Of a stretch of DNA of 64,000 bases, positions 1-62,590 are shown in pieces (the stretch's first letter is position 1; the number at the start of each line of letters is the position of its first letter). A program made the position numbers and the translations under genes. The stretch lies in contig CAZYIA010000004.1 of assembly GCA_964646765.1 (NCBI GenBank), positions 77,887 through 141,886 of the forward strand, in the 5' to 3' direction. The notes under the pieces are model-generated. The model did no database searches. It was not told the origin of the DNA and was given only the letters and a program-made list of their open reading frames with translations. The stretch comes from an uncultured Candidatus Saccharibacteria bacterium (GTDB lineage: Bacteria; Patescibacteriota; Minisyncoccia; Phycocordibacterales; UBA9973).

Positions 1-250
1 GCAACTCCTCGGCAAGCGAGTTTTCCACTGCCCAGGCATCGAGCAGCTTGAGTTTCGACCCGTAGGTGCGGCACAACCGGAATAGCGCGGTGCTCATCTG
101 GTTGAAGTCGCTGAGAGACTTCGGGTCGATCACATCCTGCAGCACGGTCTTGCGGCGCGCCTCGGACTGCTTGCTGCTTTCCAGGCGGCGGGCGCCCGAA
201 AGAAACGACGGCCGAACGGCCACAATTGTGACTTTCTCCAAAACTTCCAT
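1..250 (-). CDS. hypothetical protein, N-terminal part (gene runs off the window edge)
   Basis: Open frame with no stop from ~250 to position 1 on the minus strand. GGAG lies ~8 nt upstream of the ATG. Not in the supplied ORF track (edge-truncated). Coordinates approximate. Confidence 0.35.
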   Translation of the reverse strand, partial: MEVLEKVTIVAVRPSFLSGARRLESSKQSEARRKTVLQDVIDPKSLSDFNQMSTALFRLCRTYGSKLKLLDAWAVENSLAEEL

Positions 251-435
251 GAGTTTTCTCCATGCAAAGCCCGCCCCCTCACCCCGAGGGAACACGTCGA
301 CCTTGCAGTGGAGTCAGCCGCAGCGTGAATGCAGCTTTCCGTTTCGGTTCATGTCATATCGTATGAGCCGATATGACTTTGGCCGCAAAAAAAGCCCAGG
401 GACCGGAGTCGCTGGGCTTGTGTGGGTTTGCTTGC

Positions 436-4498: not shown

Positions 4499-5050
4499 AT
4501 GAACATCAAGACCGTTTTGGCGGCGGCAAGTCGTCTGGCCGCGCGCTTGTTTGGCACGTCGGCTTCGGCAGGCTGGCTGTGGGTCGGCGACGACGATGCG
4601 TCAGTACTGTTCGAGAAGAAGTTCGAGCACGACGAGTTCTTCGTCGTGGCCCGGCTTGCCATCGACGAGGACAGCGGGGTTGACGCACGGTTTTCCGACG
4701 TATGGAAGCCGGGTGCGATGTTGCTGCCCAAGCGATGGAAGGAGCACCTGTCGCGGGACATCCAGTGGTACGTCCCGCGTCAAGGCCTGAAAGCATCCTG
4801 GGTTCTCCAGGACCACATGCAGAGCGACATTCAGGTCGCGCTGGGCGAACGCCCGCTATACCGCCTCGACGTGGAGATCTGGTTCGGCAACGAGTGCCTG
4901 ATCATCCGCGGCAACCAGGGGCTGGTGCTCAATCTCGACGACTACAACTTTGTCGAGGTCGAGGAGATCACTGCTTCGCTCGCCGAGGAAGCAGTGGCGG
5001 CAACCCGCAGAACCAGGCTTTACGAAGATATGGTTCTCGGGATGTGCTGA
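4499..5050 (+). CDS. hypothetical protein
   Basis: Start MNIKTV is preceded by AAGGAG. Followed by a terminator. Confidence 0.65.
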   Translation: MNIKTVLAAASRLAARLFGTSASAGWLWVGDDDASVLFEKKFEHDEFFVVARLAIDEDSGVDARFSDVWKPGAMLLPKRWKEHLSRDIQWYVPRQGLKASWVLQDHMQSDIQVALGERPLYRLDVEIWFGNECLIIRGNQGLVLNLDDYNFVEVEEITASLAEEAVAATRRTRLYEDMVLGMC

Positions 5051-5098
5051 TTTCCCCAAACCCGCGTCAGTGATTCGTTCACGGCGGGTTTTTCTTTG
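5050..5098 (+). terminator. rho-independent terminator (CCCCAAACCCGCGTCAGTGATTCGTTCACGGCGGGTTTTTCTTTGTG)
   Basis: Stem-loop plus T tract. Closely related to the 2195-2232 hairpin. Confidence 0.6.
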
Positions 5099-5187
5099 TG
5101 CGCAAAACCGCATCGACGCACAGGCTGTCTTTGTTGCAAGGGTCGGAGGCGTTCGTTGTGAATGCTGCCTTTGCAAGGAGAATCAAG

Positions 5188-5847
5188 ATGCATCAACATG
5201 CCACCCAGAGTCCGGAAGCCACTCTGAAATACTCCAAGGCGGTCATTTTCGTGCCGCGGGAGGGCTCGATGCTCGATCACCAGATCGCGCCAGCCAGCGG
5301 TATCGTTGGCGTCATGAATGGCGGGCAGTTGGTCCTGTATTTCGAGGGTAACCTGTTTCAGTCGAGCAGCCTTGCCCGCCCTGAAGATCGTGTGTGCTGT
5401 GCCTTTGGGCGTGCCAGTGTCGGTTATCCAACAATCGCCAAGCGTGGCGTGGCTCCGGAAGAATACGTCGACCTGATCCGCGTCGGCGAGGTGCATTGGC
5501 CCAACGAGATTCGCTGGGACAGCCCGGGCAGCGCCCTGGTATTCCAGGAATACATGGCACGCCAGCAGACGCAAGGCGCCCTGTCCGGTTTGCATGTCAT
5601 GGAAGCGGACATGACGGAGCTGCTGGAGTCGTACGAAGATCCCAGGACACGCGAGGAATGGCGCTGGATCGAGGCCATGGCGAGCTTCAATCATGTTGCC
5701 AATGACGTGACCCCCGGCGTGTTCGAGTTCCTGGTGCGTGTGCGGGAAGCGGACGAGTATGAGGCCCCGCCTCCGCTCGCGGTTTGCGGCGTGCTCGATG
5801 CCGCACGCGCCCAGGGCATTGAATGGGTGATGTTCTATCAGGGCTGA
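5188..5847 (+). CDS. hypothetical protein
   Basis: Start MHQHATQ is preceded by GGAG. Own terminator downstream. Confidence 0.6.
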   Translation: MHQHATQSPEATLKYSKAVIFVPREGSMLDHQIAPASGIVGVMNGGQLVLYFEGNLFQSSSLARPEDRVCCAFGRASVGYPTIAKRGVAPEEYVDLIRVGEVHWPNEIRWDSPGSALVFQEYMARQQTQGALSGLHVMEADMTELLESYEDPRTREEWRWIEAMASFNHVANDVTPGVFEFLVRVREADEYEAPPPLAVCGVLDAARAQGIEWVMFYQG

Positions 5848-6010: not shown

Positions 6011-7387
6011 ATGGAGATCAAGAAAATCTCCGAGCTGTTCGGCGTGGCCGCGCCGGACACCGCTCAAATCGAAGTGAACGAACCTTCGTTCGAAACGCCG
6101 GAAATAGACTCGGCGTACTCGTTTAACGAGGACCAGATCCGGCGTTTGCAGACCTGGTGGCGGGGCAAGGTGAAAAAGTCGATCTTCCTCACCGGGCCCA
6201 CCGGATGCGGGAAGACCACGCTGATCGAGCAGTTCGCCGCGCGCATCGGAGCCGATTTCTTTCTGGTTCCCTGCCACGGCAAGCTCGACATGGCCGAATT
6301 GCTCGGCAGCAAGGGCATCGCCAAGGATGGTTCGACGTTTTTCGAGCACGGTATCGGGGTGCGCGCCATGCGGCACCAGCGCCCGTGCATCCTGGCCATG
6401 GACGAGATGAACTTCGTCCCACCGGGCTCGATCGGCCTTCTCAACCGGATTACCGAGCTGAAAAGCTTTTCGATTCCGGAAACAGGAGAGGTGATCACGC
6501 CCATGCCCTGGGTCCGCATTGCGGCAACCGGTAACGCGGTCGAACGTGGTGACGATGCAGTTCGTTACCGCGGTACGCAGGCCATGAACGTCGCCCTGCT
6601 GAACCGGTTTCTCGGTATGCGGATGAACTACATGGAGGCGACATCGGAAGCTGCGATGTTGAATACGGCGATTCCTGGCCTGCACCCCAGGCTGATCGAG
6701 CGTCTGGTCGAGCTCGCCAATGAGGTGCGGAACGGATTTGCCCAGGGCACGCTGGAAGTCGTCATGTCCACCCGGACCCTGCTCGACATGGCCCAGGCCT
6801 TGTTCGACCGGAAGGCGCTTGTGGCGAAAAATCCAGTCGAAGAGGTCAACTGGGCGATGGAGTTCTGCCTGACCGACCTCGCGCGGCCGGAAGACCGCGA
6901 TGTGGTTGCACGGCTGGTTCAGGACAAGTTTCACGGCCTGAAGCTGTCCCCGGCAACCGCAACGGCGTCGCCAAAGCCGAAGACGTTCTCGTCGGCGCCT
7001 GTCGACCAGTCGAATGCCGAGATCAGCTTCTGGATTCATCCGAACCGTGGAGCCAAGGGTGCGGCATTCTGGGGATACGTCGAAAGCGACGGCGTATGTC
7101 GGTCCGTCAATGGCAACATTGACGAAGCAGCCCCGCGAGACGGCGAAATTCGCGACATGAAGTGGATCGCTGACCGCGCCAGGGACAAGGAAGCCAAGGG
7201 TTACACCAGGGTGTCAGCCCCTTGTCCGATTCTCCTGCCAACCGGCTCGAGTTCCTCGCAAAGCGAGGTCATCGATGCAGTCAGGGCTGTCGTTGAACTT
7301 GTGAGGGATTACAGGGACAACAAGCCCGTGCAAGTCCCGGGAAACCTGCAGGCCTTCATTGTCGAGGCCATGACAGCGTTCTCCTGA
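6011..7387 (+). CDS. AAA+ ATPase, MoxR/CbbQ/CobS-like (AAA_5) with C-terminal extension
   Basis: Walker A LTGPTGCGKTT, Walker B ILAMDEMNF. RBS AGGAGG. Confidence 0.85.
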   Translation: MEIKKISELFGVAAPDTAQIEVNEPSFETPEIDSAYSFNEDQIRRLQTWWRGKVKKSIFLTGPTGCGKTTLIEQFAARIGADFFLVPCHGKLDMAELLGSKGIAKDGSTFFEHGIGVRAMRHQRPCILAMDEMNFVPPGSIGLLNRITELKSFSIPETGEVITPMPWVRIAATGNAVERGDDAVRYRGTQAMNVALLNRFLGMRMNYMEATSEAAMLNTAIPGLHPRLIERLVELANEVRNGFAQGTLEVVMSTRTLLDMAQALFDRKALVAKNPVEEVNWAMEFCLTDLARPEDRDVVARLVQDKFHGLKLSPATATASPKPKTFSSAPVDQSNAEISFWIHPNRGAKGAAFWGYVESDGVCRSVNGNIDEAAPRDGEIRDMKWIADRARDKEAKGYTRVSAPCPILLPTGSSSSQSEVIDAVRAVVELVRDYRDNKPVQVPGNLQAFIVEAMTAFS

Positions 7388-7391
7388 TTTT

Positions 7392-7435
7392 CCTCCCCCC
7401 AACCCCGCATGGATTCGTCCGGCGGGGTTTTCTTT
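7392..7435 (+). terminator. rho-independent terminator (CCCCCAACCCCGCATGGATTCGTCCGGCGGGGTTTTCTTTG)
   Basis: Hairpin plus T tract. Confidence 0.6.
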
Positions 7436-7522
7436 GTTGGGAATCCTCGGTTGCGCATCGGCTTATCCAGGAACAAGGAGCGCTTCCCGTGGTGGGAACC
7501 CTTGTCTGAAAAGGAGCAAATC

Positions 7523-7972
7523 ATGCAGGAACAACAGTCGATCAAAGTCTTCGTCCTCTGCCGGGACGCCAACGGCGCACCGGATCTGGTGACCTATCAA
7601 ATCGCGGCCACGGCCGACGAGATAGGCAACGGCGCGCACTACGAGATGGCCATTGCCCGCGCGGAAAACGACGCCTACGAGAGCCCATTCGAGGCGTTCG
7701 ACGAGCACGATCCCGCGGCGCGCAGGATTGTCCGGGTTGAGCCCGAAGAGCCTGAAGTCTCTCATTACCTGCTCATCATGGTTGGCGACGTCGAGCCCGA
7801 GTTGTCCGGGCCTTACCCGCACGCCGAGGCCGTGCTGGAGGCAGCACGACGTCAGCGCGACGGCGACCCGGACATGGAAAACGGTCTGTTCAGGCTGACC
7901 GTCCGTAATGGACAGCCCGAAGTCGCCGCCTTCAGCGGCATGGATCTCGAACTGGACGAGTTCGCGCCTTAA
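7523..7972 (+). CDS. hypothetical acidic protein (150 aa)
   Basis: AAGGAG upstream of MQEQQSI. Own terminator. Confidence 0.6.
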   Translation: MQEQQSIKVFVLCRDANGAPDLVTYQIAATADEIGNGAHYEMAIARAENDAYESPFEAFDEHDPAARRIVRVEPEEPEVSHYLLIMVGDVEPELSGPYPHAEAVLEAARRQRDGDPDMENGLFRLTVRNGQPEVAAFSGMDLELDEFAP

Positions 7973-7974
7973 CC

Positions 7975-8030
7975 CCTCCCTACCCGGTTCATTCCTTCGG
8001 AATGGCCGGGTTTTTCAATGCCAGGTATTT
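7975..8030 (+). terminator. rho-independent terminator
   Basis: cccggttcattccttcggaatggccggg plus T5. Confidence 0.55.
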
Positions 8031-8039
8031 GTTGTACCG

Positions 8040-8092
8040 TGCTCGGCCAAAAAAAATCCACCACGGCCGAAGCGCATGGTGGATTGGGGAAC
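8040..8092 (-). terminator. rho-independent terminator for the vWA gene
   Basis: A-tract, tccaccac...gtggtgga stem, TTGGGG. Reads stem plus T-run on the minus strand. Confidence 0.5.
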
Positions 8093-8093
8093 G

Positions 8094-10115
8094 TCAGACC
8101 GCGTCCCGGATGGCCTGCATGAGGCCGTCCGCGAGTTGATCCGTCGTGTTGACTTCGATCCATGACAACCCGAACGAGTCGAGCAGGTCGGTGAATCGTG
8201 CGAGAGACCTTCTCTCGTGTTCATGGCCGGAATTGATCAGCAGAATGGATGTTTCCACGCCGAACGACGCGCAGGTCTGCAAGGCGGCAGCGGTCCGGTC
8301 CGGTTCGGCGGGAAAGCCGTCCGTCACCAGCAACAGCAGCTTGCGTTCCTCGTCTCGTGTCGCCAGCTCCGGTACCACGCGCTCGACCGCCTGCCCCGTG
8401 AGGGTGTTGCCTTCGGTCTTGTGCCAGTGAAGGTCCCTGATACGTCGCCACGCCTCCTCGAAACGCTTGACCGGAGTCAGGTTCTCACCGAAGAAGTGAA
8501 GCGAACACGGCACCTCATGCTTGTCCATCGCCGAGACGGCGGCCCGTGCGGAAGCAACGGCGCCATGCAGCCTGGACACGCCGTCGGCAAGCGCGGTATC
8601 CATCGACGCCGAAACGTCGAGCAGCACCGAGACAGCCGTGCTGACCCCGCTGACATCCTCGTCGATCCTGAAGACGCGTGGTTGCGGGCTCGACTTCACG
8701 CTCGCCAGATGTCTGGATGACAGTTTCCGCCCGGAACGCTCAAGATGCGATCGTTCCTCCAGGCGCGATTCAAGCAGTACCTCCAGGTGCGAGACAACCT
8801 TGAGCTCGATCTGCCGCGTGAGCGCGGCGTAGGGCTCCAGTGCCTGGGCATTCGGGAGTGCGCGTTTTTCGCGGATGGTCCAGCTGTTGTCCGGTGGCGC
8901 CACCTGGTCGATCGCCTCTTGCAGCAGGCTGCCAAGGTCGGTCTCCGGCAGATCGTGTGCACTCAACAGTTGCGCGAGCGCTTTGATCGCCTGATCGAGA
9001 TCGCCCTGTTCGACGCCATCCTGCAAGCTCGAGGCTGCCGAGGGATCCCCGGCGTCACCCTGACTGCCTGACGATGATTCGCTACCCTCAGACGGAGTGC
9101 CGTTGGAGTTCTTCTCGTTGTCATCCTGCTCACCTTGCGACGAACCGGAAGCGCTGGGTCCCTCATCCTGCGGATCCTGGCCGGCATTCTGGTCGTCTCC
9201 CTTCCCGTCGCCGTTCTCGCCCTGCTCTTGCGAACCGGCTTCACCACTCCGGGAAGTGTCGCTCGCGGATTCGTCGTCCTCCTTCCCGTCTTTCGACGAG
9301 CCGGAAGCCTCTTGGCTGTCATCCCGGGAATCCTGGTTGGTGTCTTGCTTGCCTTCCGCTTTTCCCTGGTCGCTACCCTGATCCTGCCCGGCGGTGCCGG
9401 AACTGCCATCGCTGGAATCGTCTTGCCCGGCTTGCGCCTGCTGATTCTCCATCGACTGCAACTCGCGCTTGAGGAACTCTTCCAGCGCAATCGAACAATC
9501 CACGACATCCTTCGTGCAACGGCTACGAGCGAGCCCGTCGCGTGCGATGTCCAGAAAGCCCTTGACCACCGGCATGCCGACCATGGTGCACAACATCGAC
9601 ATCCGGGCCCGGTACATCGGCTCGAGGATCTTCTGCCCCAGGTATTGCCCACGCACCCAACCGAGCAGCATGTTGGGAAACAGCTCCTCGACCGGCTCAT
9701 CGGGAGAAGGCATGTCGAACAGCCCTCTTTTGACCATGACCTCCAGCGCAGCCTCGATCCTGACGGCCATACCCGGGTAGTCGCGTTTTTCGCATGCTTC
9801 CATCCTGCCGTCCTCGAGGGAACGGTAGAAGGACAGCGCGAGCGGTCGTTTGAGAATGGTCGTCTTGGCAAGAAAGTCCGTGTAGCGGACGTGTCCGAAC
9901 TCGTGCGTACAGGTGCCGTCGAGCAGAACAACTGCGTCCGGTTCGTCGGAAAACGCCGCGAAGTTGATGGTCACCGTCTTGCCGTCGGTGCATCCGGTCG
10001 AGATGTTGCCTGAACGGATGTTTATCCCCAGCCGCCGGCCAACGATCTCACCGTACATCCTGAGATTGGCGACCCGGCGGGTCACCGTGCCAGACTTACG
10101 AAATGTTGCCTTCAT
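8094..10115 (-). CDS. von Willebrand factor A (vWA, MIDAS) protein with long poly-acidic/Ser-Gly low-complexity spacer; CobT-like partner of the AAA+ ATPase
   Basis: MIDAS motif DVSASM...T...D at the C-terminus. ~150-aa D/E/S/G-rich region. Start MKATFRK is preceded by GAGGAG. Confidence 0.8.
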   Translation of the reverse strand: MKATFRKSGTVTRRVANLRMYGEIVGRRLGINIRSGNISTGCTDGKTVTINFAAFSDEPDAVVLLDGTCTHEFGHVRYTDFLAKTTILKRPLALSFYRSLEDGRMEACEKRDYPGMAVRIEAALEVMVKRGLFDMPSPDEPVEELFPNMLLGWVRGQYLGQKILEPMYRARMSMLCTMVGMPVVKGFLDIARDGLARSRCTKDVVDCSIALEEFLKRELQSMENQQAQAGQDDSSDGSSGTAGQDQGSDQGKAEGKQDTNQDSRDDSQEASGSSKDGKEDDESASDTSRSGEAGSQEQGENGDGKGDDQNAGQDPQDEGPSASGSSQGEQDDNEKNSNGTPSEGSESSSGSQGDAGDPSAASSLQDGVEQGDLDQAIKALAQLLSAHDLPETDLGSLLQEAIDQVAPPDNSWTIREKRALPNAQALEPYAALTRQIELKVVSHLEVLLESRLEERSHLERSGRKLSSRHLASVKSSPQPRVFRIDEDVSGVSTAVSVLLDVSASMDTALADGVSRLHGAVASARAAVSAMDKHEVPCSLHFFGENLTPVKRFEEAWRRIRDLHWHKTEGNTLTGQAVERVVPELATRDEERKLLLLVTDGFPAEPDRTAAALQTCASFGVETSILLINSGHEHERRSLARFTDLLDSFGLSWIEVNTTDQLADGLMQAIRDAV

Positions 10116-10445
10116 GGTTCGCTCCTCGGCTCGAGAGGCCTCCACTGCGGAGAGCCATTCCTCTTTGCATAGGGGCAAGCCGTTGCAAGGTAGCGGCTAT
10201 GGTCGCGACGTCTGTTTTGGAACATCCGCGACCAAAATTGAGGGCAATGGTGCGAAGCTATCGGGTCAGCGCGGTCAACCCGGCGAGCAAAAGGACGGTT
10301 GCAACGATCGCACCGAGTGCCAGTGCGCTGCCCAGCAACGCCGACTTCAGCGGCGGCGGTGCGCTTCCTTCGATTTTCGTCGATGCTTTCATCGGTTCTG
10401 CTCCTGATTGCGGAGCAGAAACTCTCGATCAAAACCGATCGCTGA

Positions 10446-10892
10446 TCAATTTCTTATAGCGTCGATGAATCGCAGCACCTTGGCCGCACGCCTGCCTTCC
10501 TGGTCCGCGACGGCAGACAGCAGCGCGCCGACCAGGCCTTCGGCCAACAACTCGCGTTCTTCGGATGTGGATAGATGGACCGGAGCCCGATCGATCACTA
10601 CGGGGTTGTTGCGGCGCCCCATGCACTCGCTGAGCGTCATCACGCACCACTTTCGCGCCGCACGAGCGACCCAGTCAGGGACCGATTCACGGCCAAGAAT
10701 GAAATCCGAGACGCGACGCGCGGCCGATCTCGAAGAACCGGAAAGCACGGGTCGGCCCGCGATCGCCTCGATCTCCGCGGCCACAAGCAGATTTGTGCCT
10801 GTCTCGGATCCGATCAGGTACCGCATGAGGCCAACAGTATTGAGGACGGGCGCGTCTTCGATGGGGCGGCCAGGCAGATTACTTTTCCTCAA
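10446..10892 (-). CDS. hypothetical protein, paralog 2 of a duplicated pair
   Basis: N-terminus GRPIEDAPVLNTVGLMRYLIG aligns with the upstream gene's GRPLLDHPVRNVIGLMLHLLG. Confidence 0.6.
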   Translation of the reverse strand: MRKSNLPGRPIEDAPVLNTVGLMRYLIGSETGTNLLVAAEIEAIAGRPVLSGSSRSAARRVSDFILGRESVPDWVARAARKWCVMTLSECMGRRNNPVVIDRAPVHLSTSEERELLAEGLVGALLSAVADQEGRRAAKVLRFIDAIRN

Positions 10893-11378
10893 TCAGGGAT
10901 TCTCGCTCTGTTTCAGGATCGTTTCTATGAGCAGCAGCGTTGACCGCAGCTTTCGCTCGGCCTCGGCTGCCGCGTGACGCAGCACCAGGTCTACCAGACC
11001 CGTTGCCAGTAGACGTGCGGCCGTAGCGGACGAGACATCGAGAACATGATCGTCCACCGTGATGCCAACACGCTTGCGCTTCAGTGCCGCCGCGATGTGT
11101 CGCACGCACCATTCGTGAGCGGCTTCCTCGGCCCAGATCGGGATCGCCTTGCCGCCCGATGCAAACTCACCGATGCGTTTTTGTGTTTCGCGCGTGCGCG
11201 CGACACCATCCAGCTTCGGGACGATCGTTCGGCCCGAGAGGGCCTCCAGCTCTTCTGCCAGTTTCCCGCGAGATTCCATGCCGCCCAGCAAGTGCAGCAT
11301 GAGTCCGATGACATTCCGTACGGGATGATCGAGGAGCGGCCGTCCGATCCCCTTGTTCGCGCCTCGAGGCTTGGCCAT
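10893..11378 (-). CDS. hypothetical protein, paralog 1 of a duplicated pair
   Basis: Start MAKPRGANKG overlaps the Macro gene stop (TGATG). Paralogous to 10446..10892. Confidence 0.55.
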   Translation of the reverse strand: MAKPRGANKGIGRPLLDHPVRNVIGLMLHLLGGMESRGKLAEELEALSGRTIVPKLDGVARTRETQKRIGEFASGGKAIPIWAEEAAHEWCVRHIAAALKRKRVGITVDDHVLDVSSATAARLLATGLVDLVLRHAAAEAERKLRSTLLLIETILKQSENP

Positions 11379-11836
11379 CACCGGTTCTTCTCCGGGGGGA
11401 ACAGCCATACGTCCACGGTTCCGGACGGAATCTCGGCAAAGGCCTGCTCGATGCGCTGTTTGACGATATGCCACGAGAGTCCGCCCAGACCGCAGCCGAG
11501 CGCCGGGATCGCGATGGAGTCGATGGCGTTCATTCGCACCCACTCAACGAGTACCGGCAGACCGGCTTCGATGTACGCCATCTTTGACGGACTGCGCCAG
11601 AAGATCTTGGTCGGAAAATGAACAATGCGACGGCCGTCCTCGAGCCAGAAGTCGTGCAGCAATCCCGGCTTGAGTTCCTTGCGTGCGCAGGCCTGGCGGT
11701 ACGACTCGTAAGCGGCGGGAAAGCGTTGCCTGAACTCCAGCGCCAGACCTTTTCCCGCGATGCCTTGCCCGTTCACCGGGTTGACCAGCGCGCGGACTGG
11801 GGCGTCGAAGATGCTGCCTTGGCGTTCTTCAATCAT
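11378..11836 (-). CDS. Macro domain protein (ADP-ribose / O-acetyl-ADP-ribose processing family)
   Basis: GIAGKGLALEF...AIPALGCGLGGLSW matches the macro-domain glycine-rich loops. 152 aa. Confidence 0.8.
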   Translation of the reverse strand: MIEERQGSIFDAPVRALVNPVNGQGIAGKGLALEFRQRFPAAYESYRQACARKELKPGLLHDFWLEDGRRIVHFPTKIFWRSPSKMAYIEAGLPVLVEWVRMNAIDSIAIPALGCGLGGLSWHIVKQRIEQAFAEIPSGTVDVWLFPPEKNR

Positions 11837-12104
11837 TCGGGTTCATTGCCTCGTTGACGCGCATCAACAGCATGGCGCAGGCCAGGATCGCCATTGCTGC
11901 GGCAAATGCCGAGACGTAGGGGTGTCCGTCGAAGCTGGATCCGAAAGCGACGATGATCTCATGCGCCGACGCCCCGGTTGCGAGGTGACCGACAAGTAGC
12001 AAAAGGCCCATGAACACCGCCAGCGCGCCTACCGGCAGGAGGGCGTCAATCAGTTTGTAAGGCACGTCTGTTTTCCAGAAAATCGCGCAGCCGTACGCCC
12101 GCAT
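11829..12104 (-). CDS. small membrane protein (2 predicted TM)
   Basis: Hydrophobic segments LLPVGALAVFMGLLLLVGHL and AFAAAMAILACAMLLM. Its stop abuts the Macro gene start. Start uncertain (12104 or 12011). Confidence 0.45.
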   Translation of the reverse strand: MRAYGCAIFWKTDVPYKLIDALLPVGALAVFMGLLLLVGHLATGASAHEIIVAFGSSFDGHPYVSAFAAAMAILACAMLLMRVNEAMNPND

Positions 12105-12891
12105 CGGCGCGCGCGAAGTTGAACACCGGAATGCCCCAGCGGCTTGCGAGGGCGATCGCCTGCCCTGTCCCGCCCGTGGCAGGCCCGCGCTCCGCTTCGT
12201 TCTCCGCTCCGTCCGGGGTCCAGGCAATGACGAAATCGCTGGGTGTGCGGCAATCGGCACCGAGGATCTGGTGGGTGTTGCGCGCCATCAGCTTGCGGAC
12301 CGCCGGCGACAGCTTGTTCCAGGCCGGATGCAGACAGGCGGCCACCTCCATGGCTTCCTGTGTCGGCTCAACGAAAACCGAACGGCGACCATTGAACCCC
12401 GGCCACGGCAGAAAAATTTCCTTTTGCGCGCCGGCACCTTGCTCGAATGCTGTATCCGCGCCGCCCGCACCGCCGGAACGCAGCGTGTATCCCATGCGGG
12501 CAAGCCGGACAGCGGCTTCGGTCATGCGGGCCAACTGGTCAGGCGGTGTCTTGCGCGAACCGATGCCGGCGTAAGTCATGCTGATTTCCTTCGGGGGCAG
12601 CCCGGTCTCTGCCAGGCGCCGCCAGGCATGCTCTACCTCGGTTCCGTGACAGCGCAACGGAGCGCACGAACAAACAAGGCGGGAATCGGCCTTCAGACCC
12701 AGAAGCGCGGTCAACATTGCGGGGTCGCCTTGCGACACCCTGTAGGCCATACGATCGGCGTACTGCTCGCACACCTGGTCGCGGTCACCGTGCTCGCCGA
12801 TGACGTAGGGATTGCCGAATACCGTCCCGCGGCCGATGTAGATTGAACCGGGTGGCCAGTCGTTGAGGTTCTTGCGGTTGAGGATCTGCAT
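12046..12891 (-). CDS. fusion protein: N-terminal DUF4326-like domain (GNPY...CSC) + C-terminal DprA/Smf-like SLOG Rossmann domain
   Basis: N-terminus GSIYIGRGTVFGNPYVIG...CSCAPLRCHG. C-terminus GIGSRKTP...SGGAGGADTAFEQGA...HQILG...GGTGQAIALASRWGIPVFNF resembles DprA SGLARGIDxxAH...AVP. Confidence 0.65.
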   Translation of the reverse strand: MQILNRKNLNDWPPGSIYIGRGTVFGNPYVIGEHGDRDQVCEQYADRMAYRVSQGDPAMLTALLGLKADSRLVCSCAPLRCHGTEVEHAWRRLAETGLPPKEISMTYAGIGSRKTPPDQLARMTEAAVRLARMGYTLRSGGAGGADTAFEQGAGAQKEIFLPWPGFNGRRSVFVEPTQEAMEVAACLHPAWNKLSPAVRKLMARNTHQILGADCRTPSDFVIAWTPDGAENEAERGPATGGTGQAIALASRWGIPVFNFARADAGVRLRDFLENRRALQTD

Positions 12892-12904
12892 GCCGCCCGC
12901 CGGT

Positions 12905-13402
12905 TCAGGTTCCACTCAAGACAAATGCCTCTTCTGCAGGAATGAACGCGGCGAGCATCGAGCCCAGCAAGGTGTGCACGTAATTGCTGTACGGCAGGTT
13001 CAGCCTCGCGAGTCTGGCACGCAAAGCCGTGAACGAACCTGTTTCGTGGCCCGATTCCACAATCGTCGCCAGATCCCGGCCTGTCCATGCACAAAATCGC
13101 CCTTCGCGATCAAGACCAAACCAGTGCAGCGCGTCGAAACTAAGCTGTGCCGGCTCGCACGCGGCCACGCCGTACGGGATGAACGAGGCGTGCGTCACGG
13201 CGCATCCTTCGTTGGCGGGGTGATCCGCAATCAGGCCCCACGACCGGGTCTCTTTTGCGAGCATCACACGCACTCCCTGCACCGGTCGCCCGGAATCACC
13301 CCGTATCGCGTTGGACAGGACTACCGCATACGTTGGCCCGGCGAGGAACATGGGCGCAGACAAGACAAGCAAGCGTGTCTCCGTTATTTCGTGCGCCGGC
13401 AT
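12905..13402 (-). CDS. hypothetical protein (165 aa) at the head of the Macro operon
   Basis: Internal Met of the 12905..13957 ORF. Ends 13 nt before the next start. Confidence 0.4.
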   Translation of the reverse strand: MPAHEITETRLLVLSAPMFLAGPTYAVVLSNAIRGDSGRPVQGVRVMLAKETRSWGLIADHPANEGCAVTHASFIPYGVAACEPAQLSFDALHWFGLDREGRFCAWTGRDLATIVESGHETGSFTALRARLARLNLPYSNYVHTLLGSMLAAFIPAEEAFVLSGT

Positions 13403-18877: not shown

Positions 18878-19684
18878 TCACACAAGCGCGTAAGCGCCAA
18901 ACGGACGATCTTCAGGCGCGTCGGCAACCCGCAGGTCGACCAGGCCGATGGACCGCTTGGGAGCAGCGATCACCCCGGTTTTTGCCATCGTCTCGACCAT
19001 GGTGAGGCAGCCTTCTTTCTTCAGGCCGCACTGCCCGAATACCGCGCCCGAATCGATGGCATAGACATTTGCCAGCCGGGTCGCGCCCGTCCATTGCGGC
19101 GTGTGACCGACAAACAAGCGTCCGACACCCCCCACTCCGCTCGTGTCCTGCCTGCGAATCCGATCCCGGCCCCACAAGCAGGTGTGGATGGTTTCTGTGT
19201 CGCCCGCCTCAAGGCGAAGAAGAAACTCGCCCCATCGCATGCCGGTCGGCACGTCCGCGTGAATCAGGCCGACTGAGCCGCGTGCGGTGTCCACCTCGAT
19301 GGCAAGGGGTAGTTTGCGGATTGCGTCGAGGATCTCCATGCGGCGATTCTCCGGCACGTCCAGCCACCACTCCAAGCCGTTATAGCGGCTGGCCACATCC
19401 AGGACTGCTGGATCGGGCACGCCGGCGCTGTAGAGTTCAAGCAGCATGTCCTCGTGATTCCCGCGCACCGCATGCACAAACGACTGGGCAAGAAATGCCG
19501 CGCAGCGATGCGAGCCTGGACCGCGGTCGATGAGGTCGCCGACACTGAAGAGGCGGTCGATCTGCGGGTCGAACCCGGCCTCTTTCATCGCGTCGAGCAC
19601 CAGGTCGAACGCGCCGTGGATGTCGCCGACGACGAAATCGCGACCCACGGTGTTCCGGGAGAATCGCTGGACCGTTTGCATCAT
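18878..19684 (-). CDS. Ser/Thr-phosphatase-fold metallophosphoesterase (PPP / ApaH-like)
   Basis: Motifs GDIHG, GDLIDRG, GNHE. AGGAAGG RBS. Start overlaps the ThiF gene stop. Confidence 0.85.
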   Translation of the reverse strand: MMQTVQRFSRNTVGRDFVVGDIHGAFDLVLDAMKEAGFDPQIDRLFSVGDLIDRGPGSHRCAAFLAQSFVHAVRGNHEDMLLELYSAGVPDPAVLDVASRYNGLEWWLDVPENRRMEILDAIRKLPLAIEVDTARGSVGLIHADVPTGMRWGEFLLRLEAGDTETIHTCLWGRDRIRRQDTSGVGGVGRLFVGHTPQWTGATRLANVYAIDSGAVFGQCGLKKEGCLTMVETMAKTGVIAAPKRSIGLVDLRVADAPEDRPFGAYALV

Positions 19685-20484
19685 GCCACCTTCCTTTGCG
19701 GACGCGCCTGTTTCACGGGTATCTGGTAGCCGAACCGCGCCCAGGCCTCCGGATCCACCGGCAATGGCGTCGCACGCCCCGTCGCGAGGTTGACGAAGAT
19801 GCCGTGGTGGTCGATTTTGCCGTGACGGAACAGCCTCCAGAGGAGATTCAGCCCCCAATCCGACACAGCCCTGTTGATAAAAAGATCCTGGCGCCCCAGA
19901 GCCTCTACCATTGAGCAGCTCGGCGTGTTGTCCTCCGGGATCGTGGGATCGAGGATGTCGGGGAACAGGTCGACAACAGTGGGCAGGCGGTCCGGACTGT
20001 CTTCCGGTCGCGTCCAGGTAGGCAAGGTTTGTCCAAGAATCGCCTGTCCCGAAGTTTCCTGGTTGCCAAGGTCGAGCCATAGCGCGTCGCAACTTTGCAG
20101 CGCCGCATGGATGTCGCGTCGTGCGGCCCGGTTGTCCACCGCCCCGATGACGAGGTCGGCGGAAACCCGCGTGTCTGCCGACAGGCGCTTGAACTCGGCA
20201 GTCCAGTCCAGCCCGTATGCCACGTTGATCCGATGCGTCAGCACGATAGCCTTGCTCGACCCCACGTCGGCCGGGTAGAAGGCCTGCCTTCCGACGTTCG
20301 AGTCGGACACAAGGTCGAAATCCATGGTGGTGACATCGAGGCCGCCTGGATGCCCCAACGCACGCATGGCGCGGTCGAGTTCGGCAAGCCCCGTCAGCAT
20401 CCGGGAACCGTTGCCACCGGCCCCGACCAACAGCACCTTTACGCTGCGTGAAAGCAGGTGACGCGGAATCGCAAATTCAGTCAT
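19681..20484 (-). CDS. PRTRC system protein B, ThiF/MoeB E1-like
   Basis: VLLVGAGGNGS Rossmann motif. GGAGGAGG RBS. ATGA coupling with the JAB gene. Confidence 0.85.
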   Translation of the reverse strand: MTEFAIPRHLLSRSVKVLLVGAGGNGSRMLTGLAELDRAMRALGHPGGLDVTTMDFDLVSDSNVGRQAFYPADVGSSKAIVLTHRINVAYGLDWTAEFKRLSADTRVSADLVIGAVDNRAARRDIHAALQSCDALWLDLGNQETSGQAILGQTLPTWTRPEDSPDRLPTVVDLFPDILDPTIPEDNTPSCSMVEALGRQDLFINRAVSDWGLNLLWRLFRHGKIDHHGIFVNLATGRATPLPVDPEAWARFGYQIPVKQARPQRKVA

Positions 20485-21113
20485 GCCTCCTCCATCAAGC
20501 CGCCGAGATCGACCGGCAGGTAGATGCCGAGTGCACACAATCGCGTCGCCAGTGCGGGGTTCTCGCCTTGCTCGTCGATCTTGCCCACGACAAGTGCGAT
20601 CTTCACCTCGCCACGATCATCCTGGTCATCCGTGCCGGAGAAGCCCGCCGCGTGCTGGCCATGCGAATGCATGTCCACCACCAGATGCTCCTGTTCGCCC
20701 AGACGCGGACGTTCGTAGTTGATATGGCTGCCGGAGGCGCTGATCTCGACGAAGCGCTCGTACCGCCAGGCATTCGTCGCCGCATTCCAGATGATGCCGC
20801 CGGCGATCTCCGTGTGGGGTGTTGCTGCCGCGTCGCGCAAGAAGTCGATCAGCGGCTGCCATTTGATCTTGCCGCAGCCGAGTTCGACGTGATGCCCGAG
20901 CTTGCCGTAGGGCATTGCCACACGGTCCTGTGTGGCCAGCGGAACCCGGACATACAGCCAGGGCCGATGGATCTCGATCCAGAGGCCGTCCTCGGCGGCG
21001 AGGAAGCGATGCCCCGGCGTGGTCAGCGGGACGAACGCCTCGTGGCGCGGCACCATGACGGTCGGCGTCACCGTTTGCAGCGTACGGTCGATCGGATTCA
21101 AGCTGCCGTCCAT
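20481..21113 (-). CDS. PRTRC system protein A, JAB/MPN metalloprotease
   Basis: JAMM motif HLVVDMHSHGQHAAGFSGTDDQDD. Confidence 0.8.
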   Translation of the reverse strand: MDGSLNPIDRTLQTVTPTVMVPRHEAFVPLTTPGHRFLAAEDGLWIEIHRPWLYVRVPLATQDRVAMPYGKLGHHVELGCGKIKWQPLIDFLRDAAATPHTEIAGGIIWNAATNAWRYERFVEISASGSHINYERPRLGEQEHLVVDMHSHGQHAAGFSGTDDQDDRGEVKIALVVGKIDEQGENPALATRLCALGIYLPVDLGGLMEEA

Positions 21114-21114
21114 T

Positions 21115-21858
21115 TCAGCCCCTCCCCTGCTTCTTGAGAGCGAGCACCAGATCGCCCAGGGTGAGATCGGCGGGCGCAAGATGCTTCGTTGGAAAGGTCT
21201 TGAACTTGCCGTCCGCGATCTCCTTCCACAGCCCGCCGACGCCTTTCCGGTGCCGCGTAAGCCGTTTGCCATGGTCGTTCGGATGGGTGAAGGCCGAGTC
21301 GAAGAACAGCGATTCCCATTGCGGGATCGCCTGCAGGCCCGTGCGATCCGGCCGCTGCGCGCTCCCCTGACATAGACGACAGTCCGACCAGGTGTTGTAG
21401 AACGGCGCCATCGAAAGCGGGGTGCCGGGTTCCGGGCGCTCCGATTTGGTGAGCGCGAACACGTAGAGATCGCCCCCCTTCACGGCGAACACCAGTGCCG
21501 GCAGGTGTGTGCTGATTGCCCGCTTGCCGATGGGGTCCGCCCTGTCGGTGTCGAAGAACAGGGTGCGCGCCCCCGCTTCTCGCCACCACACCATCCAGCC
21601 CGCGCCTACCGCAAGCGCATGGGAAGGAAGGTAGTCGATAGCCGAGTCGGGAACGAGTTTCTCGTTGAGCGCGATCAGGGCTTCCCGCGTCACCGGCGTA
21701 CCCGCGAGCAGAAATGGCGCACCGGCGTCGTCCGTGCCAACGCTATGGACGGTCGCAAACGGCTTGCCCATGCCGTTGGCCGGCTCGTAAACGAGCAGTC
21801 CGGTGGCAAGCCGCAGCGGGCTTTCCGTGAAACCGGAAGATACATCAATTCGATTCAT
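21115..21858 (-). CDS. PRTRC system protein (D-like)
   Basis: Position in the cassette. GAGGAGG RBS. Confidence 0.55.
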   Translation of the reverse strand: MNRIDVSSGFTESPLRLATGLLVYEPANGMGKPFATVHSVGTDDAGAPFLLAGTPVTREALIALNEKLVPDSAIDYLPSHALAVGAGWMVWWREAGARTLFFDTDRADPIGKRAISTHLPALVFAVKGGDLYVFALTKSERPEPGTPLSMAPFYNTWSDCRLCQGSAQRPDRTGLQAIPQWESLFFDSAFTHPNDHGKRLTRHRKGVGGLWKEIADGKFKTFPTKHLAPADLTLGDLVLALKKQGRG

Positions 21859-22939
21859 GTCCGACCTCCTCGCCGATCAGGCCCACGAGCGTGTCGAGCT
21901 TGTGCGCCAGGGCGAACCATTGTTTCTTGTGTGCGAGCCAACCCTTGAAACCATCGGGGCTGGCTTCGAAAATCTCGATGCCGAAGGAGTCCGAATACGC
22001 CTCGCCTCCCTGCATGACGTTCTGCTCGTAATCGTCAAGGATGCGCACCATCGGGTCATGATCCGAGGTGTCCCACCAGAGCAGCGCACCATGGCCAATG
22101 AAGTCGAGATCGTTCAGTCCTTCGTAGGCACCGAACGCCCGGAACTTCCGTCCAGCGCGTCGTAGCGCGAGGCAAGTGGCTGCGACCTGGCGGGCGCATC
22201 CGGATAAGCCCGTGTTCCGGGTGATGGCCTGTAGAGCACGCACAGACAGTGCCTTGCGGGGTATCCATGCCCACTCGGGTGCATAGTCGTCGAATTGCGA
22301 GCGCCTTACGATGTAGTCACCCGCTTCCTCCTCGCCGCCGATCTCCTCGATGACCTCCGTCTCATCGGGCTCACCGTACCAATAGAACATGGACGCAAGG
22401 TAGAAGGCGCGCGCCGGATCCATCACGTCAACCGTGCGGATCGCCGCTTCGCGGAGATCGTGAAGCGCGGTCCTGCCAAGGCCGGGACATTCGCATTCCA
22501 GCGCGTTCAGCACACGGCCAACAGTAAAGCTGCGCGAGGACGCCCCCCACGTCGTCACCGCGAGATGCGGGCGATCCGGATCCAGGCCGCGGGCTTCCAA
22601 AAGAGCGGCCCAGTCCCACGCGAAGTCCTGCTCCCCTTCGGCAAGCTGGATCGACAGAGAACAGGCGAGACGGTCGAACCGCCCGTTTCGGGTAGCCCAG
22701 TCCGACAGCGCGGCAAGGACGACGGCCTCCGCGTTGTAGGCGGACTTCCAGTGATGCGGTTTCACCAGACCCGCGTCGTCGCACCATAGCGCCAGGCTGG
22801 CCCATTCCGCCCGCTCGGGACGCAGAGAGATCCTGGTCGGCACACGGTCGAGTTTCGGCAAACCGGCATACACCGACGCGACCTGTCTGCGAGCCGGCCG
22901 CAGGGTTGCCCGTTGAGTGGTTTCGAGCCGGGCGTTCAT
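21845..22939 (-). CDS. PRTRC system protein (F-like)
   Basis: Position in the cassette. 364 aa. Confidence 0.55.
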   Translation of the reverse strand: MNARLETTQRATLRPARRQVASVYAGLPKLDRVPTRISLRPERAEWASLALWCDDAGLVKPHHWKSAYNAEAVVLAALSDWATRNGRFDRLACSLSIQLAEGEQDFAWDWAALLEARGLDPDRPHLAVTTWGASSRSFTVGRVLNALECECPGLGRTALHDLREAAIRTVDVMDPARAFYLASMFYWYGEPDETEVIEEIGGEEEAGDYIVRRSQFDDYAPEWAWIPRKALSVRALQAITRNTGLSGCARQVAATCLALRRAGRKFRAFGAYEGLNDLDFIGHGALLWWDTSDHDPMVRILDDYEQNVMQGGEAYSDSFGIEIFEASPDGFKGWLAHKKQWFALAHKLDTLVGLIGEEVGHESN

Positions 22940-23137
22940 GGCAGCAGGGGTAGCGCCGTCCAGTGCGGCACGGTCGGAGTTCCGTTTCGGTGTGCCGCAA
23001 GCACATCATGGATCAGCTTGCTGGAATCCAGGTTGGCGGCGTGATTTGTCGGGCTTGCGCCGCCCATCCGCGTCGCCGCCATGCTCTCCATCGCCGCCCG
23101 CCATTGCGCTCGGTTCAACCGCATGTATGGCGTCCGG

Positions 23138-23617
23138 TCAAGCATGGCAGCGCCCGGCTGCCGAGTTGCGGAGACTGTCCCGCGCCTCGATCAGCACCCG
23201 CATCGACATGGTGTCGCAGTCCCTCGCGTTGAGGCGAATGTCGATGGCTTCGAGTGCCTGGTCAAGCATCTTTTCGTTGGTCCGGCTCTCCGTCAGGAAG
23301 GCGCGCAGGCAGAGACCGCTCCTCTCGTTGCAGTCGGGGAGTAGGCAGCCAATGCAGATCCGCTCAGACAACTCGCTTGCCTGCCGGACACAGGCTTCGG
23401 TGGTCGAGATGGCCATCCCTTTCATCCCCGCGGCTCGCCGGAAGCTGTAGGTCATCTTGCCATCGCGCGCCTCGGGGCCTTCTACGGTGGCCGTCGCCAG
23501 TTCGGGATACGTGGCGCTGTACACGTCCCGCACCTGGTCGGGCGAGAGGTTGGGGTTGGGGTCGGGCAGCGTCACCCCTGCATAGGAAAAGCTGCGGACA
23601 AGTGCGGTCACTTTCAT
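23138..23617 (-). CDS. PRTRC system protein C (ubiquitin-like beta-grasp) continuing into a ~90-aa Cys-rich C-terminal extension
   Basis: N-terminal 70 aa MKVTALVRSFSYAGVTLPDPNPNLSPDQVRDVYSATYPELA...FRRAAGMKG is typical of PRTRC-C. The ORF continues with no stop. Confidence 0.55.
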   Translation of the reverse strand: MKVTALVRSFSYAGVTLPDPNPNLSPDQVRDVYSATYPELATATVEGPEARDGKMTYSFRRAAGMKGMAISTTEACVRQASELSERICIGCLLPDCNERSGLCLRAFLTESRTNEKMLDQALEAIDIRLNARDCDTMSMRVLIEARDSLRNSAAGRCHA

Positions 23618-23627
23618 GGCGACGGCC

Positions 23628-24068
23628 TCACTCGAACAGGTTTTCCGCCGATGCGGAGTTGGATTCGTCGGCTTCGCTGGCCGCCGTCGCTGCCGGCTCG
23701 GTGACCTTCACCGACACCGGTGTCGCAGCCGGGGTGGCGGCGGACTTGCCTGCCGCGCCCTTCACTGCTTTCGCCGCCTTGGACGTGGCGTCCTTCTTGG
23801 CCGCGTCGATCACTGCCTGGGTGTCCTTGAGGGCGTCGGCCAGCGATTTCCGGCTGACCTCGTAGCTGCCAAGGGCATCGGTGAAACCGGAGTCCAGTTC
23901 CTCCGGGGTGGCCTCGAATTGCAGTGGCTGGTGCAAGGCGGGGTTGGGGTTGTCGCCGACCGCTTTCGGCACGACGGTCACAATAAGCGTGCCCGCCTCA
24001 CGGTTGGCGCTGAAAGTCATCGCCAGGGTGGCGTCCTGCGCGATCTCGAAAATTTTCTGAAACAGCAT
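23628..24068 (-). CDS. PRTRC system protein E
   Basis: AAGGAG RBS. Ala/Lys-rich C-terminal half. Position next to the ParB-like gene. Confidence 0.6.
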   Translation of the reverse strand: MLFQKIFEIAQDATLAMTFSANREAGTLIVTVVPKAVGDNPNPALHQPLQFEATPEELDSGFTDALGSYEVSRKSLADALKDTQAVIDAAKKDATSKAAKAVKGAAGKSAATPAATPVSVKVTEPAATAASEADESNSASAENLFE

Positions 24069-24087
24069 GGGTATCTCCTTCTTGGGT

Positions 24088-25743: not shown

Positions 25744-25898
25744 GGTCCCTCCTCTTGTACCGCGCTTACGGTGCGCGGCAAACCACACCAAGAACATTAT
25801 AACACGCCTGTTGCGCGGATATAGTGGGCGTATAGTGTTTTTATAGTGCCGCTATTGTGTTTTTAGACAGAGTCGGTATACTCATTACATGAGGCCTG

Positions 25899-62440: not shown

Positions 62441-62590
62441 GCAATCCATAACCATGTAACATTGCATGCGAATTCCGGCGAGCCAGATTGATTGAGTAGG
62501 TAACAACTTATTCGAAACCGGCATATTTGATTGACGACGCACCTCTTTTTGTGTAGGCTGGTTGCTATACAAATTTCATAGAGGTGCCAT

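Follow-up and report, generated by a model that had tools for sequence, protein, structure and literature searches.

The conjugative plasmid pVCR94, of the IncC group, is protected against the type I restriction-modification (R-M) system of Vibrio cholerae by two genes, vcrx089 and vcrx090, and the protein encoded by vcrx089 was described as having AAA_5 and CbbQ_C domains (Roy et al., PMC7498323). Deletion of both genes (Δvcrx089-90) lowered transfer 25-fold; this defect was rescued only when the genes were provided from the recipient and was gone in a ΔhsdR recipient, and its authors termed vcrx089-090 a novel anti-restriction mechanism (PMC7498323). With the same deletion in pKAZ3, restriction by EcoBI rose 424-fold and restriction by EcoKI 906-fold (PMC11602122), and AntiDefenseFinder lists vcrx089_090 as a two-gene system (PMC11724313). 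The papers that describe this several-hundred-fold protection of IncC multidrug-resistance plasmids against EcoKI and EcoBI give no mechanism. Here we describe a locus that suggests one, found in a 64-kb stretch of DNA (assembly GCA_964646765.1, contig CAZYIA010000004.1, positions 77,887 to 141,886; hereafter the window, numbered from its first letter), where a homologue of the Vcrx089 ATPase is placed in a CobS-CobT-like motor-adaptor machine, a structural type that was recently solved. We propose, with the chances for and against about even, that the locus encodes a mobile-element machine of the CobS-CobT type, made of motor, adaptor and possibly client, for the evasion of host defences. A preliminary description of this DNA had assigned no role to such gene pairs on mobile elements; for the ATPase family this is outdated, since the homologue Vcrx089, with Vcrx090, confers anti-restriction against type I R-M and does so in the recipient cell (PMC7498323, PMC11602122).

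[quoted passage not shown] The parts of the window that enter this comparison, with a conserved acidic protein encoded between them and a third gene at the left edge, are as follows.

6011-7387, + strand: AAA+ ATPase of 458 aa; the Shine-Dalgarno sequence AAGGAGG lies 7 nt 5' of its ATG.
6011-7015, + strand: AAA+ motor module of the ATPase (CobS/MoxR class), made up of the large subdomain, a lid of the CbbQ_C type and additional helices at the C-terminal side.
7016-7384, + strand: C-terminal extension of the ATPase, with a WGR-like beta-sheet/helix core (7016-7231) and two helices (7259-7375).
7523-7972, + strand: acidic protein, 149 aa, isoelectric point (pI) 4.27, 31 D+E, conserved in related elements.
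8094-10115, - strand: CobT-like adaptor, 673 aa, convergent to the ATPase gene, with its ATG at 10115 and its own GAGGAG.
9420-10115, - strand: N-terminal domain of the adaptor, with a zincin motif, HEFGH (9891-9905), and LEDGRME; CobT_N-like topology.
8931-9419, - strand: acidic Ser/Gly/Gln-rich linker of the adaptor, presumably disordered, 163 aa (aa 233-395).
8094-8930, - strand: C-terminal half of the adaptor, comprising a vWA domain with complete MIDAS and, at 8670-8843, a shaft-like segment.
1-250, - strand: the first 83 codons (N-terminal part) of a gene of the DUF3150 family (PF11348), the remainder lying beyond the left edge of the window.

The ATPase carries the Walker A (GPTGCGKT, 6194-6217) and Walker B (LAMDEMN, 6392-6412) motifs that had been read in it before. 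It matches the Pfam families AAA_5 (4e-17, 62.9 bits, cut-off 22) and CbbQ_C (3e-6, 27.8 bits, cut-off 20.6) and, among the sequences of solved structures, CobS (4e-19) and NorQ (1.5e-13), the NorQ and CbbQ matches ranging from 1e-13 to 1e-8. Across 22 homologues, Walker A residues G62-K68, Walker B residues D131/E132, N175, R187 and R255 are invariant or nearly so; N175 would be the sensor-1 residue, R187 the Arg-finger and R255 the sensor-2 residue, assignments made by analogy rather than by residue-by-residue alignment to solved CobS.

The vWA partner of 673 aa with its MIDAS, also part of the preliminary description, was equally borne out. The pair is real; the upper boundary given for it (10178), however, is merely that of the longest, TTG-started open reading frame (ORF; 8094-10178, - strand, 694 aa), and homologues begin at the ATG at 10115. 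The MIDAS comprises DVSAS (8604-8618), T571 and D599, and Y429, R434, G462, R468, D500, S502, S504, T571 and D599 are invariant among homologues, in which the shaft-like segment is conserved as well. In Pfam the adaptor exceeds the cut-off for CobT_C (22.8 bits, cut-off 21) and stays slightly under those for VWA_2 and VWA. A homologue search with the full adaptor, in which the low-complexity linker is suspected of having swamped the word index, yielded a set of nine proteins, and the profile of the adaptor and its eight homologues matches solved NorD (1.5e-12) and residues 221-552 of solved CobT (7.9e-10), a stretch with the CobT linker, the shaft (Q373-R413) and the vWA domain.

Between the two adaptor halves lies the CobT-type acidic spacer that had been noticed earlier, with 40 D+E, 9 K+R and 56 S+G in its 163 aa and a pI of 4.05. 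No tandem repeat was found in the DNA beneath it. Among variants that are 95-99% identical (665, 673 and 676 aa) it is the main variable region, where substitutions are concentrated, and D/E-rich acidic linkers stand at the equivalent place in the IncC adaptor, which adds Q/G/N, and in solved CobT, where the linker has about 90 aa versus about 160 here. An AAA+ ring protein with a CbbQ_C lid and an adaptor with M48C-like N-domain topology, acidic linker, shaft segment and vWA/MIDAS are what the window shares with CobS-CobT. From sequence profiles and models we are highly confident that homology and domain architecture are those of a CobS/CobT-type motor-adaptor pair, in agreement with the earlier assignment to the MoxR-type AAA+ and vWA class, which the matches to solved NorD, CobT and CobS uphold.

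Two features had escaped the preliminary description, the HExxH motif of the adaptor and the C-terminal domain of the ATPase. The AlphaFold2 model of the adaptor N-domain (mean predicted local distance difference test score, pLDDT, 88) consists of one helix, three strands and about nine helices, matching the description of CobT_N; a profile of this domain gave no CobT_N match among PDB sequences. In homologues as distant as 23% identity, H71, E72 and H75 are invariant, and so are E101 and E106, the glutamates of LEDxRxE. Of 17 mobile-element adaptors, 15 retain the HExxH motif (as HEFGH, HEAAH, HECSH or HEVAH); it is absent from all three genuine CobT proteins compared, which are encoded by cobT genes adjoining cobS in Cereibacter, Sphingomonas and Pandoraea and have ADAFAL or GDAAAL at this site; the two downstream glutamates are common to both groups. 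In CobT the N-domain is a pseudo-peptidase, with no HExxH at this M48C-like site, and in this respect the window adaptor differs from it. A metallopeptidase domain was previously noted on the versions of jumbo phages (PMC7824862), and cyanophage cobT is frequently annotated as a peptidase (PMC8651126).

With respect to vcrx089-090, the window ATPase and the IncC ATPase, which is Vcrx089 by position, are homologous AAA_5 and CbbQ_C proteins with 28% identity (E 4e-36), and the adaptors of the window and of IncC align collinearly across 628 columns (E 1e-28). In a neighbour-joining (NJ) tree with 200 bootstraps, small and distance-based, the genuine CobS proteins form a clade (100%), and the WGR-fused subfamily to which the window ATPase belongs is joined with IncC/SXT against CobS, the SSU5-like copy and the P. 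aeruginosa megaplasmid copy (85%); by E value and by shared clade, the window ATPase is of the Vcrx089 type. The two systems are alike in being carried on conjugative elements, and the IncC/SXT element, too, bears DUF3150 and the gene of the collinear CobT-like vWA protein. On an IncC plasmid the DUF3150 gene and the vWA gene, which by gene order are vcrx094 and vcrx095, lie directly 3' of exo, and pVCR94 cDNA primed in vcrx094 held vcrx087, vcrx089 and bet (PMC7498323); because of this gene order and this cDNA, the IncC DUF3150 and vWA genes are probably co-transcribed with the hde operon, a point undiscussed in that paper. In contrast to vcrx089-090, the window genes are convergent, with terminators of their own, and stand outside an ssb-bet-exo operon, the window has no detectable Vcrx090 and instead has a WGR-like domain fused to the ATPase, and it adds the conserved acidic 149-aa protein. 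The published system comprises two genes, vWA and DUF3150 excluded.

The ATPase extension is found in a subfamily of homologues of 454-505 aa, with W354, N367, R376, K393 and G397-Y398 conserved, and the final ~125 residues of the ATPase are covered by no plasmid or phage match. Among 1.84 billion representatives the extension is carried by only 17 clusters, nearly all of them C-termini of proteins of ~460-495 aa. Its AlphaFold2 model (pLDDT 91.7) has a b-b-b-b-a-b layout plus two helices; the top Foldseek match in the PDB is 2ra8, the N-terminus of which is a WGR domain (probability 0.96, E 0.14), and the top match among the viral models of BFVD is a 'WGR domain-containing protein' (probability 1.00, E 0.043, root-mean-square deviation 2.4 Å). 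At the sequence level, hhalign against a small WGR alignment gave E 8.9e-4 and a probability of 23%; against one WGR protein and against the Vcrx090-type alignment it aligned the K-G-Y motif alone, with 1-2% probability. Pfam WGR (PF05406) gave no match with 20 members at E up to 10. The K..GY motif is retained, while 'WGR' itself is replaced by 'FNG'. From the models we regard the extension as WGR-like, and not as a proven WGR domain.

The proteins at the Vcrx090 position in Methylomonas and in SXT/R391 start with WGR-type motifs (RWGKT...QKQAKGY and RFGKAG...EKINKGY) and align with bona fide WGR domains, the SXT/R391 protein reaching Pfam WGR with E 0.087; PHROG and Pfam searches with Vcrx090-type proteins were uninformative, and a direct profile comparison of the ATPase extension with the Vcrx090-type alignment was not significant. 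We hypothesize, as these sequences suggest, that in the window ATPase a motor of the Vcrx089 type and a DNA module of the Vcrx090 type may have been fused.

The preliminary description had treated the ATPase and the adaptor as a pair. Hidden Markov models (HMMs) for the ATPase, for both adaptor halves and for DUF3150 were used to scan the six-frame ORFs of every fetched locus, 18 of which are independent plasmid or integrative and conjugative element loci (the window family, L001, L002, L010, SXT/R391, L012, L016, L017, L020, L021, L022, IncC, the P. aeruginosa megaplasmid, L024, L029, L030, L031+L032, counted separately, and L033). The adaptor was found within the flanks in 17 of the 18 loci, so that the pair, whose co-conservation in homologous elements had been named as a check, is no chance juxtaposition. 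DUF3150 recurs as a third member in 13 of the 18, and three genes rather than two have to be considered. In the window, the ORF 2-313 (- strand) matches the HMM of DUF3150 proteins (1e-37), and the full-length protein is present in a contig with the same element (L004; Pfam 7.2e-38, 130.8 bits, cut-off 24.9). In L016, L017, L022 and L030 the three genes lie side by side, or almost so, as a compact operon. That DUF3150 accompanies the pair in most conjugative elements we regard as a solid result of these sequence comparisons; of the 820 plasmids that the adaptor matches in tblastn, 776 are predicted to be conjugative. DUF3150 has no PHROG family, was not found in the SSU5-like phage-plasmid locus L024 or within the short flanks of genuine cobST loci, and in the literature searched is mentioned only in one unrelated preprint.

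In other elements the module adjoins ssb/bet/exo, RadC or ArdC. The small Allochromatium plasmid pALVIN02 (L030) has a compact RecT-exo-AAA-DUF3150-vWA-RadC block and a type I R-M system of its own, and in Caballeronia pSBC1_4 (L032) the ATPase gene directly adjoins an ArdC anti-restriction gene.

Among the phages and phage-plasmids that carry 'cobST' genes (cyanophages, SSU5, jumbo phages), the likeness extends to the ATPase (phrog_249, 9e-46), to the adaptor (phrog_1576, 5e-27) and to a metallopeptidase-like N-terminal domain, the SSU5-like copy having HEVAH. Unlike the window genes, the phage genes are adjacent and co-directional, come without DUF3150 (no PHROG, none in L024) and without the WGR-like domain, and the roles proposed for them are a boost of B12 synthesis or virion assembly. 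NorQ-NorD, CbbQ-CbbO and RavA-ViaA share the motor-adaptor logic, as reflected in the NorD match of the adaptor and the NorQ and CbbQ matches of the ATPase; these systems, however, act on defined housekeeping clients (cNOR, Rubisco), their adaptors have no CobT_N-type HExxH domain, and a DNA-linked domain is absent.

If CobSTN, NorQD-NorB and CbbQO-Rubisco are taken as the models, the ATPase would assemble into a ring of six subunits, the N-domain of the adaptor would dock on the small AAA subdomain with the shaft entering the pore, and ATP hydrolysis would be passed through the adaptor to a client on the MIDAS face. The WGR-like module, which is a fused domain in the window and may be a protein of its own, Vcrx090, in IncC/SXT, could bring the machine to DNA, possible sites being nicks, ends or single-/double-strand junctions of newly transferred DNA. 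The client might be a DNA-bound host restriction complex, dislodged by the motor or cleaved by the zincin domain, or the machine might load or activate DUF3150 as the effector. An anti-restriction or establishment role, judged from sequence relationships, seems to us equally well worth accepting and doubting. The mechanism in its specifics, built on analogy, is tentative and on balance unlikely; the same low expectation applies to the view that ATPase, zincin/vWA adaptor and DUF3150 form one ATP-driven machine, common on conjugative elements, which is recruited to newly arrived DNA through the WGR-like module and there mechanically strips or proteolyses DNA-bound type I complexes. It would follow that housekeeping CobST is a derived, peptidase-dead branch of this lineage, or the reverse.

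Several observations weigh against this proposal. Function is carried over at 28% identity, and the ATPase is 26-29% identical to genuine CobS, about as much as to Vcrx089, so that its grouping with Vcrx089 depends on the small NJ tree and on shared context. A Vcrx090 homologue was not detected by BLASTP among the neighbouring genes of the window, and the published anti-restriction evidence covers vcrx089-090, with the vWA and DUF3150 genes outside it. Deletions of s067, s068 and s070 in SXT cut transfer by no more than 10-fold in restriction-compatible strains (PMC2791158); these are conserved genes of the bet/exo region, where the module is located in SXT/R391, and may or may not include the ATPase and vWA genes. 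The adaptors of L022 and L032 do not have HExxH, which means that proteolysis cannot be universal, and Foldseek with the N-domain gave no significant match in the PDB, leaving the peptidase fold unconfirmed. DUF3150 was not found within the flanks of five of the 18 loci, the window genes are convergent with their own terminators and form no operon, and the WGR link is marginal by sequence, with no Pfam match and hhalign probabilities of 2-23%.

The same components could serve the element itself. In a reading that we consider possible, though improbable, the module is a general chaperone of establishment, replication or recombination that remodels the element's own proteins (for instance recombination complexes of SSB, Bet and Exo, the relaxosome, proteins of partition or replication, or DUF3150) and not a host defence enzyme, and the anti-restriction seen for IncC is indirect, for example through double-strand-break repair. 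The co-transcription with ssb/bet/exo in IncC, where the Δvcrx089-90 phenotype is partly entangled with polar effects (PMC7498323), fits such a role, as do the RecT and exonuclease genes that adjoin the module in L030, L032 and L033, the dnaE gene in SSU5-like phage-plasmids, and the precedent of CobST, NorQD and CbbQO, each of which matures a dedicated client protein, for which DUF3150 is a plausible counterpart. However, complementation of Δvcrx089-90 in the recipient restored transfer and the defect vanished when that recipient was ΔhsdR (PMC7498323), the large effects are specific to EcoKI and EcoBI (PMC11602122), and ssb, bet and exo were not found in the annotated parts of the window. 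A plasmid-borne defence or exclusion system is less probable still: here a MoxR-vWA conflict system would sense invading DNA via the WGR-like domain and turn an effector, either DUF3150 or the zincin domain, on phages or rival plasmids. MoxR-vWA modules are core to described nucleoside triphosphate (NTP)-dependent conflict systems (PMC7159879, PMC8195603), the ATPase has weak PADLOC matches (mad8, 2e-5; IetA, 4e-4), and a contig variant of the same element (L005) has SIR2-STAND and NACHT genes nearby; against this, the PADLOC matches are those of a generic P-loop, the adaptor has none, and the tested homologue aids the entry of DNA and does not block it (PMC7498323, PMC11602122). Identity with a known defence system was accordingly rejected, as PADLOC returned generic P-loop matches only.

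There is also the reading that the public annotations imply, namely a genuine or moonlighting cobaltochelatase motor, in which the plasmid CobST would join a host CobN or a ChlH-like subunit and boost cobalamin synthesis. The homology to CobS and CobT is true, domain order, acidic linker, shaft and MIDAS are shared, a viral cobST hypothesis has been published (PMC8651126), and the RepA of the window suggests a Burkholderiales-like host. The window proteins, however, fall 6- to 30-fold under the equivalog cut-offs, and both identities were rejected: the ATPase scores 85.5 bits against CobS (NCBIfam TIGR01650, cut-off 558.55) and the adaptor 23.9 bits against CobT (TIGR01651, cut-off 759.05). 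Many Burkholderiales possess the aerobic cobalamin pathway, a circumstance that counts for this reading. In the phylogeny called for by the preliminary description the ATPase lies outside the genuine CobS clade (100% bootstrap), the adaptor retains the HExxH that genuine CobT has lost, and the WGR-like domain and the DUF3150 partner have no part in chelation. No ORF of the size of CobN (~1200 aa) is present in the 64-kb window, the largest having 694 aa, and no cob genes occur among its annotated ORFs, a statement that concerns the window only, the host chromosome, which may encode a CobN, lying outside it. Plasmids of Klebsiella, Escherichia, Salmonella and Vibrio, genera not known to have CobN, carry the family in abundance. 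We find a cobaltochelatase role very improbable and take as a solid conclusion from these sequence comparisons that the pair is not a cobaltochelatase, as had been suspected from the start.

If the proposed motor-adaptor machine is real, it would represent an active, enzyme-driven form of anti-restriction, unlike DNA mimics or methylases, and would add candidate parts that the vcrx089-090 papers do not link to the phenotype: a vWA adaptor with a zincin motif, DUF3150 and a WGR-like DNA module. It would also explain the 'cobalamin' annotations on more than 1000 resistance plasmids and on phages of hosts that do not make B12 in that way. The annotations 'cobaltochelatase CobS' and 'porphyrin biosynthesis' are probably wrong for the family. 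In JGI, GenBank and PHROGs, homologues go by the names 'cobaltochelatase CobS', 'cobalamin synthase' or 'porphyrin biosynthesis', which for the mobile-element clade are probably misleading.

The location on a mobile element, part of the preliminary description, is supported by the gene content of the window, which is plasmid-like, with RepA_C, ParA, ParB, KfrA, an actin-like ALP segregation gene, topoisomerase III and integrase genes and a GC content of ~60%. Its RepA is ~54% identical to plasmid RepA proteins of Ralstonia, Cupriavidus and Burkholderia, and the host, judged from this sequence, is probably Burkholderiales-like. No near-identical DNA was found in the plasmid and E. coli collections. 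Dozens of public assemblies contain the element, and 57-82 contigs are on record for each of its three proteins. A scan of genome contigs with the ATPase alignment gave eight loci, none of them close, one pattern being a generic P-loop.

The genes around the module and their ends were also described. Good Shine-Dalgarno sequences precede all three genes (ATPase, acidic ORF and adaptor), and folding of the three intergenic ends gave a terminator-like structure at each.

4499-5050, + strand: 183-aa gene 5' of the ATPase gene and co-oriented with it, found in the close subfamily only.
5098-5847, + strand: gene of ~220-249 aa directly 5' of the ATPase gene, found in the close subfamily only.
7398-7435, + strand: intrinsic-terminator-like hairpin and U-run 3' of the ATPase gene (-22.2 kcal/mol, z -2.24).
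7982-8015, + strand: terminator-like hairpin and U-run 3' of the acidic ORF (-19.1 kcal/mol, z -4.32).
8045-8088, - strand: terminator-like hairpin and U-run 3' of the adaptor gene (-23.2 kcal/mol, z -3.62).

The claim that each gene has its own terminator therefore stands, with three GC-rich hairpins and U-runs; that of independent regulation rests on these terminators only, and elsewhere the genes form a compact operon (L016, L017, L022, L030). A simple consensus scanner, which missed the three hairpins, found no excess of terminators (6 sites, 4.5 ± 2.0 expected).

The two genes 5' of the ATPase are kept at the equivalent position in two related elements, L001 and L002, with identities of 41% and 34% (tblastn) for the protein of 4499-5050 and of 47-52% for that of 5098-5847. 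The former had no match in Pfam, NCBIfam, PHROG or PADLOC; the sole family match of the latter is a sub-threshold C-terminal DUF5983 (7e-4). The acidic ORF between the two main genes, noticed earlier and confirmed at 149 aa, also had no family match in these four collections. Its homologues in L001 (12755-13384) and L002 (12423-13061) are 58-70% identical across the C-terminal half; in related elements they have ~210 aa and are always the final + strand gene ahead of the convergent adaptor gene. By these comparisons the acidic ORF is a conserved component of the locus and not a random insert.

The slot between the ATPase gene and the acidic ORF holds variable cargo in related elements. In L001 this slot, directly 3' of the ATPase with the WGR-like domain, is occupied by a gene (11517-12596) for a protein with WGR and ATP-dependent DNA ligase domains (WGR 2.9e-7, ligase 5e-7).

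Just 5' of the adaptor gene lie tandem paralogues of 148 and 161 aa (10446-10892 and 10893-11378, - strand), 33% identical to each other and without a family match; one copy is kept at the equivalent place in L001 and in L002. At 11378-11836 and 12046-12915 (- strand) lie a stand-alone macrodomain gene and, adjoining it, a gene for a DUF4326 protein with a weak DprA/SLOG-like match, both of which are conserved with the locus in L001. The macrodomain matches the N-terminal half of the antitoxin DarG (1e-51), DarT was not seen, and the gene could be an anti-DarT counter-defence. In L005 (1-7658) the DUF4326/Ros-MucR segment by the macrodomain gene is replaced by genes for a 2161-aa NACHT protein and for a SIR2 and nSTAND NTPase and by genes of the Xre/MbcA-ParS type, which looks like a swap-in of defence-type cargo beside a conserved module.

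Further along the window, at 19681-25797 (- strand), is a complete-looking PRTRC (ParB-related, ThiF-related) cassette.

19681-20538, - strand: ThiF.
20481-21272, - strand: DUF2016 and JAB.
21845-22939, - strand: alpha-hel2.
23138-23617, - strand: Prok_Ub.
23628-24068, - strand: PRTRC_E.
24088-25797, - strand: ParB-N protein, 569 aa.

On Aromatoleum plasmid 1 (L029) the same cassette separates DUF3150 from the AAA/vWA genes, and the cassette and the AAA/vWA module may travel together. At the right end of the window (60880-62400) lies an IS-type (insertion sequence) transposase gene with DUF772 and DDE_Tnp_1, and the GC content falls to 0.49 across 62001-64000.

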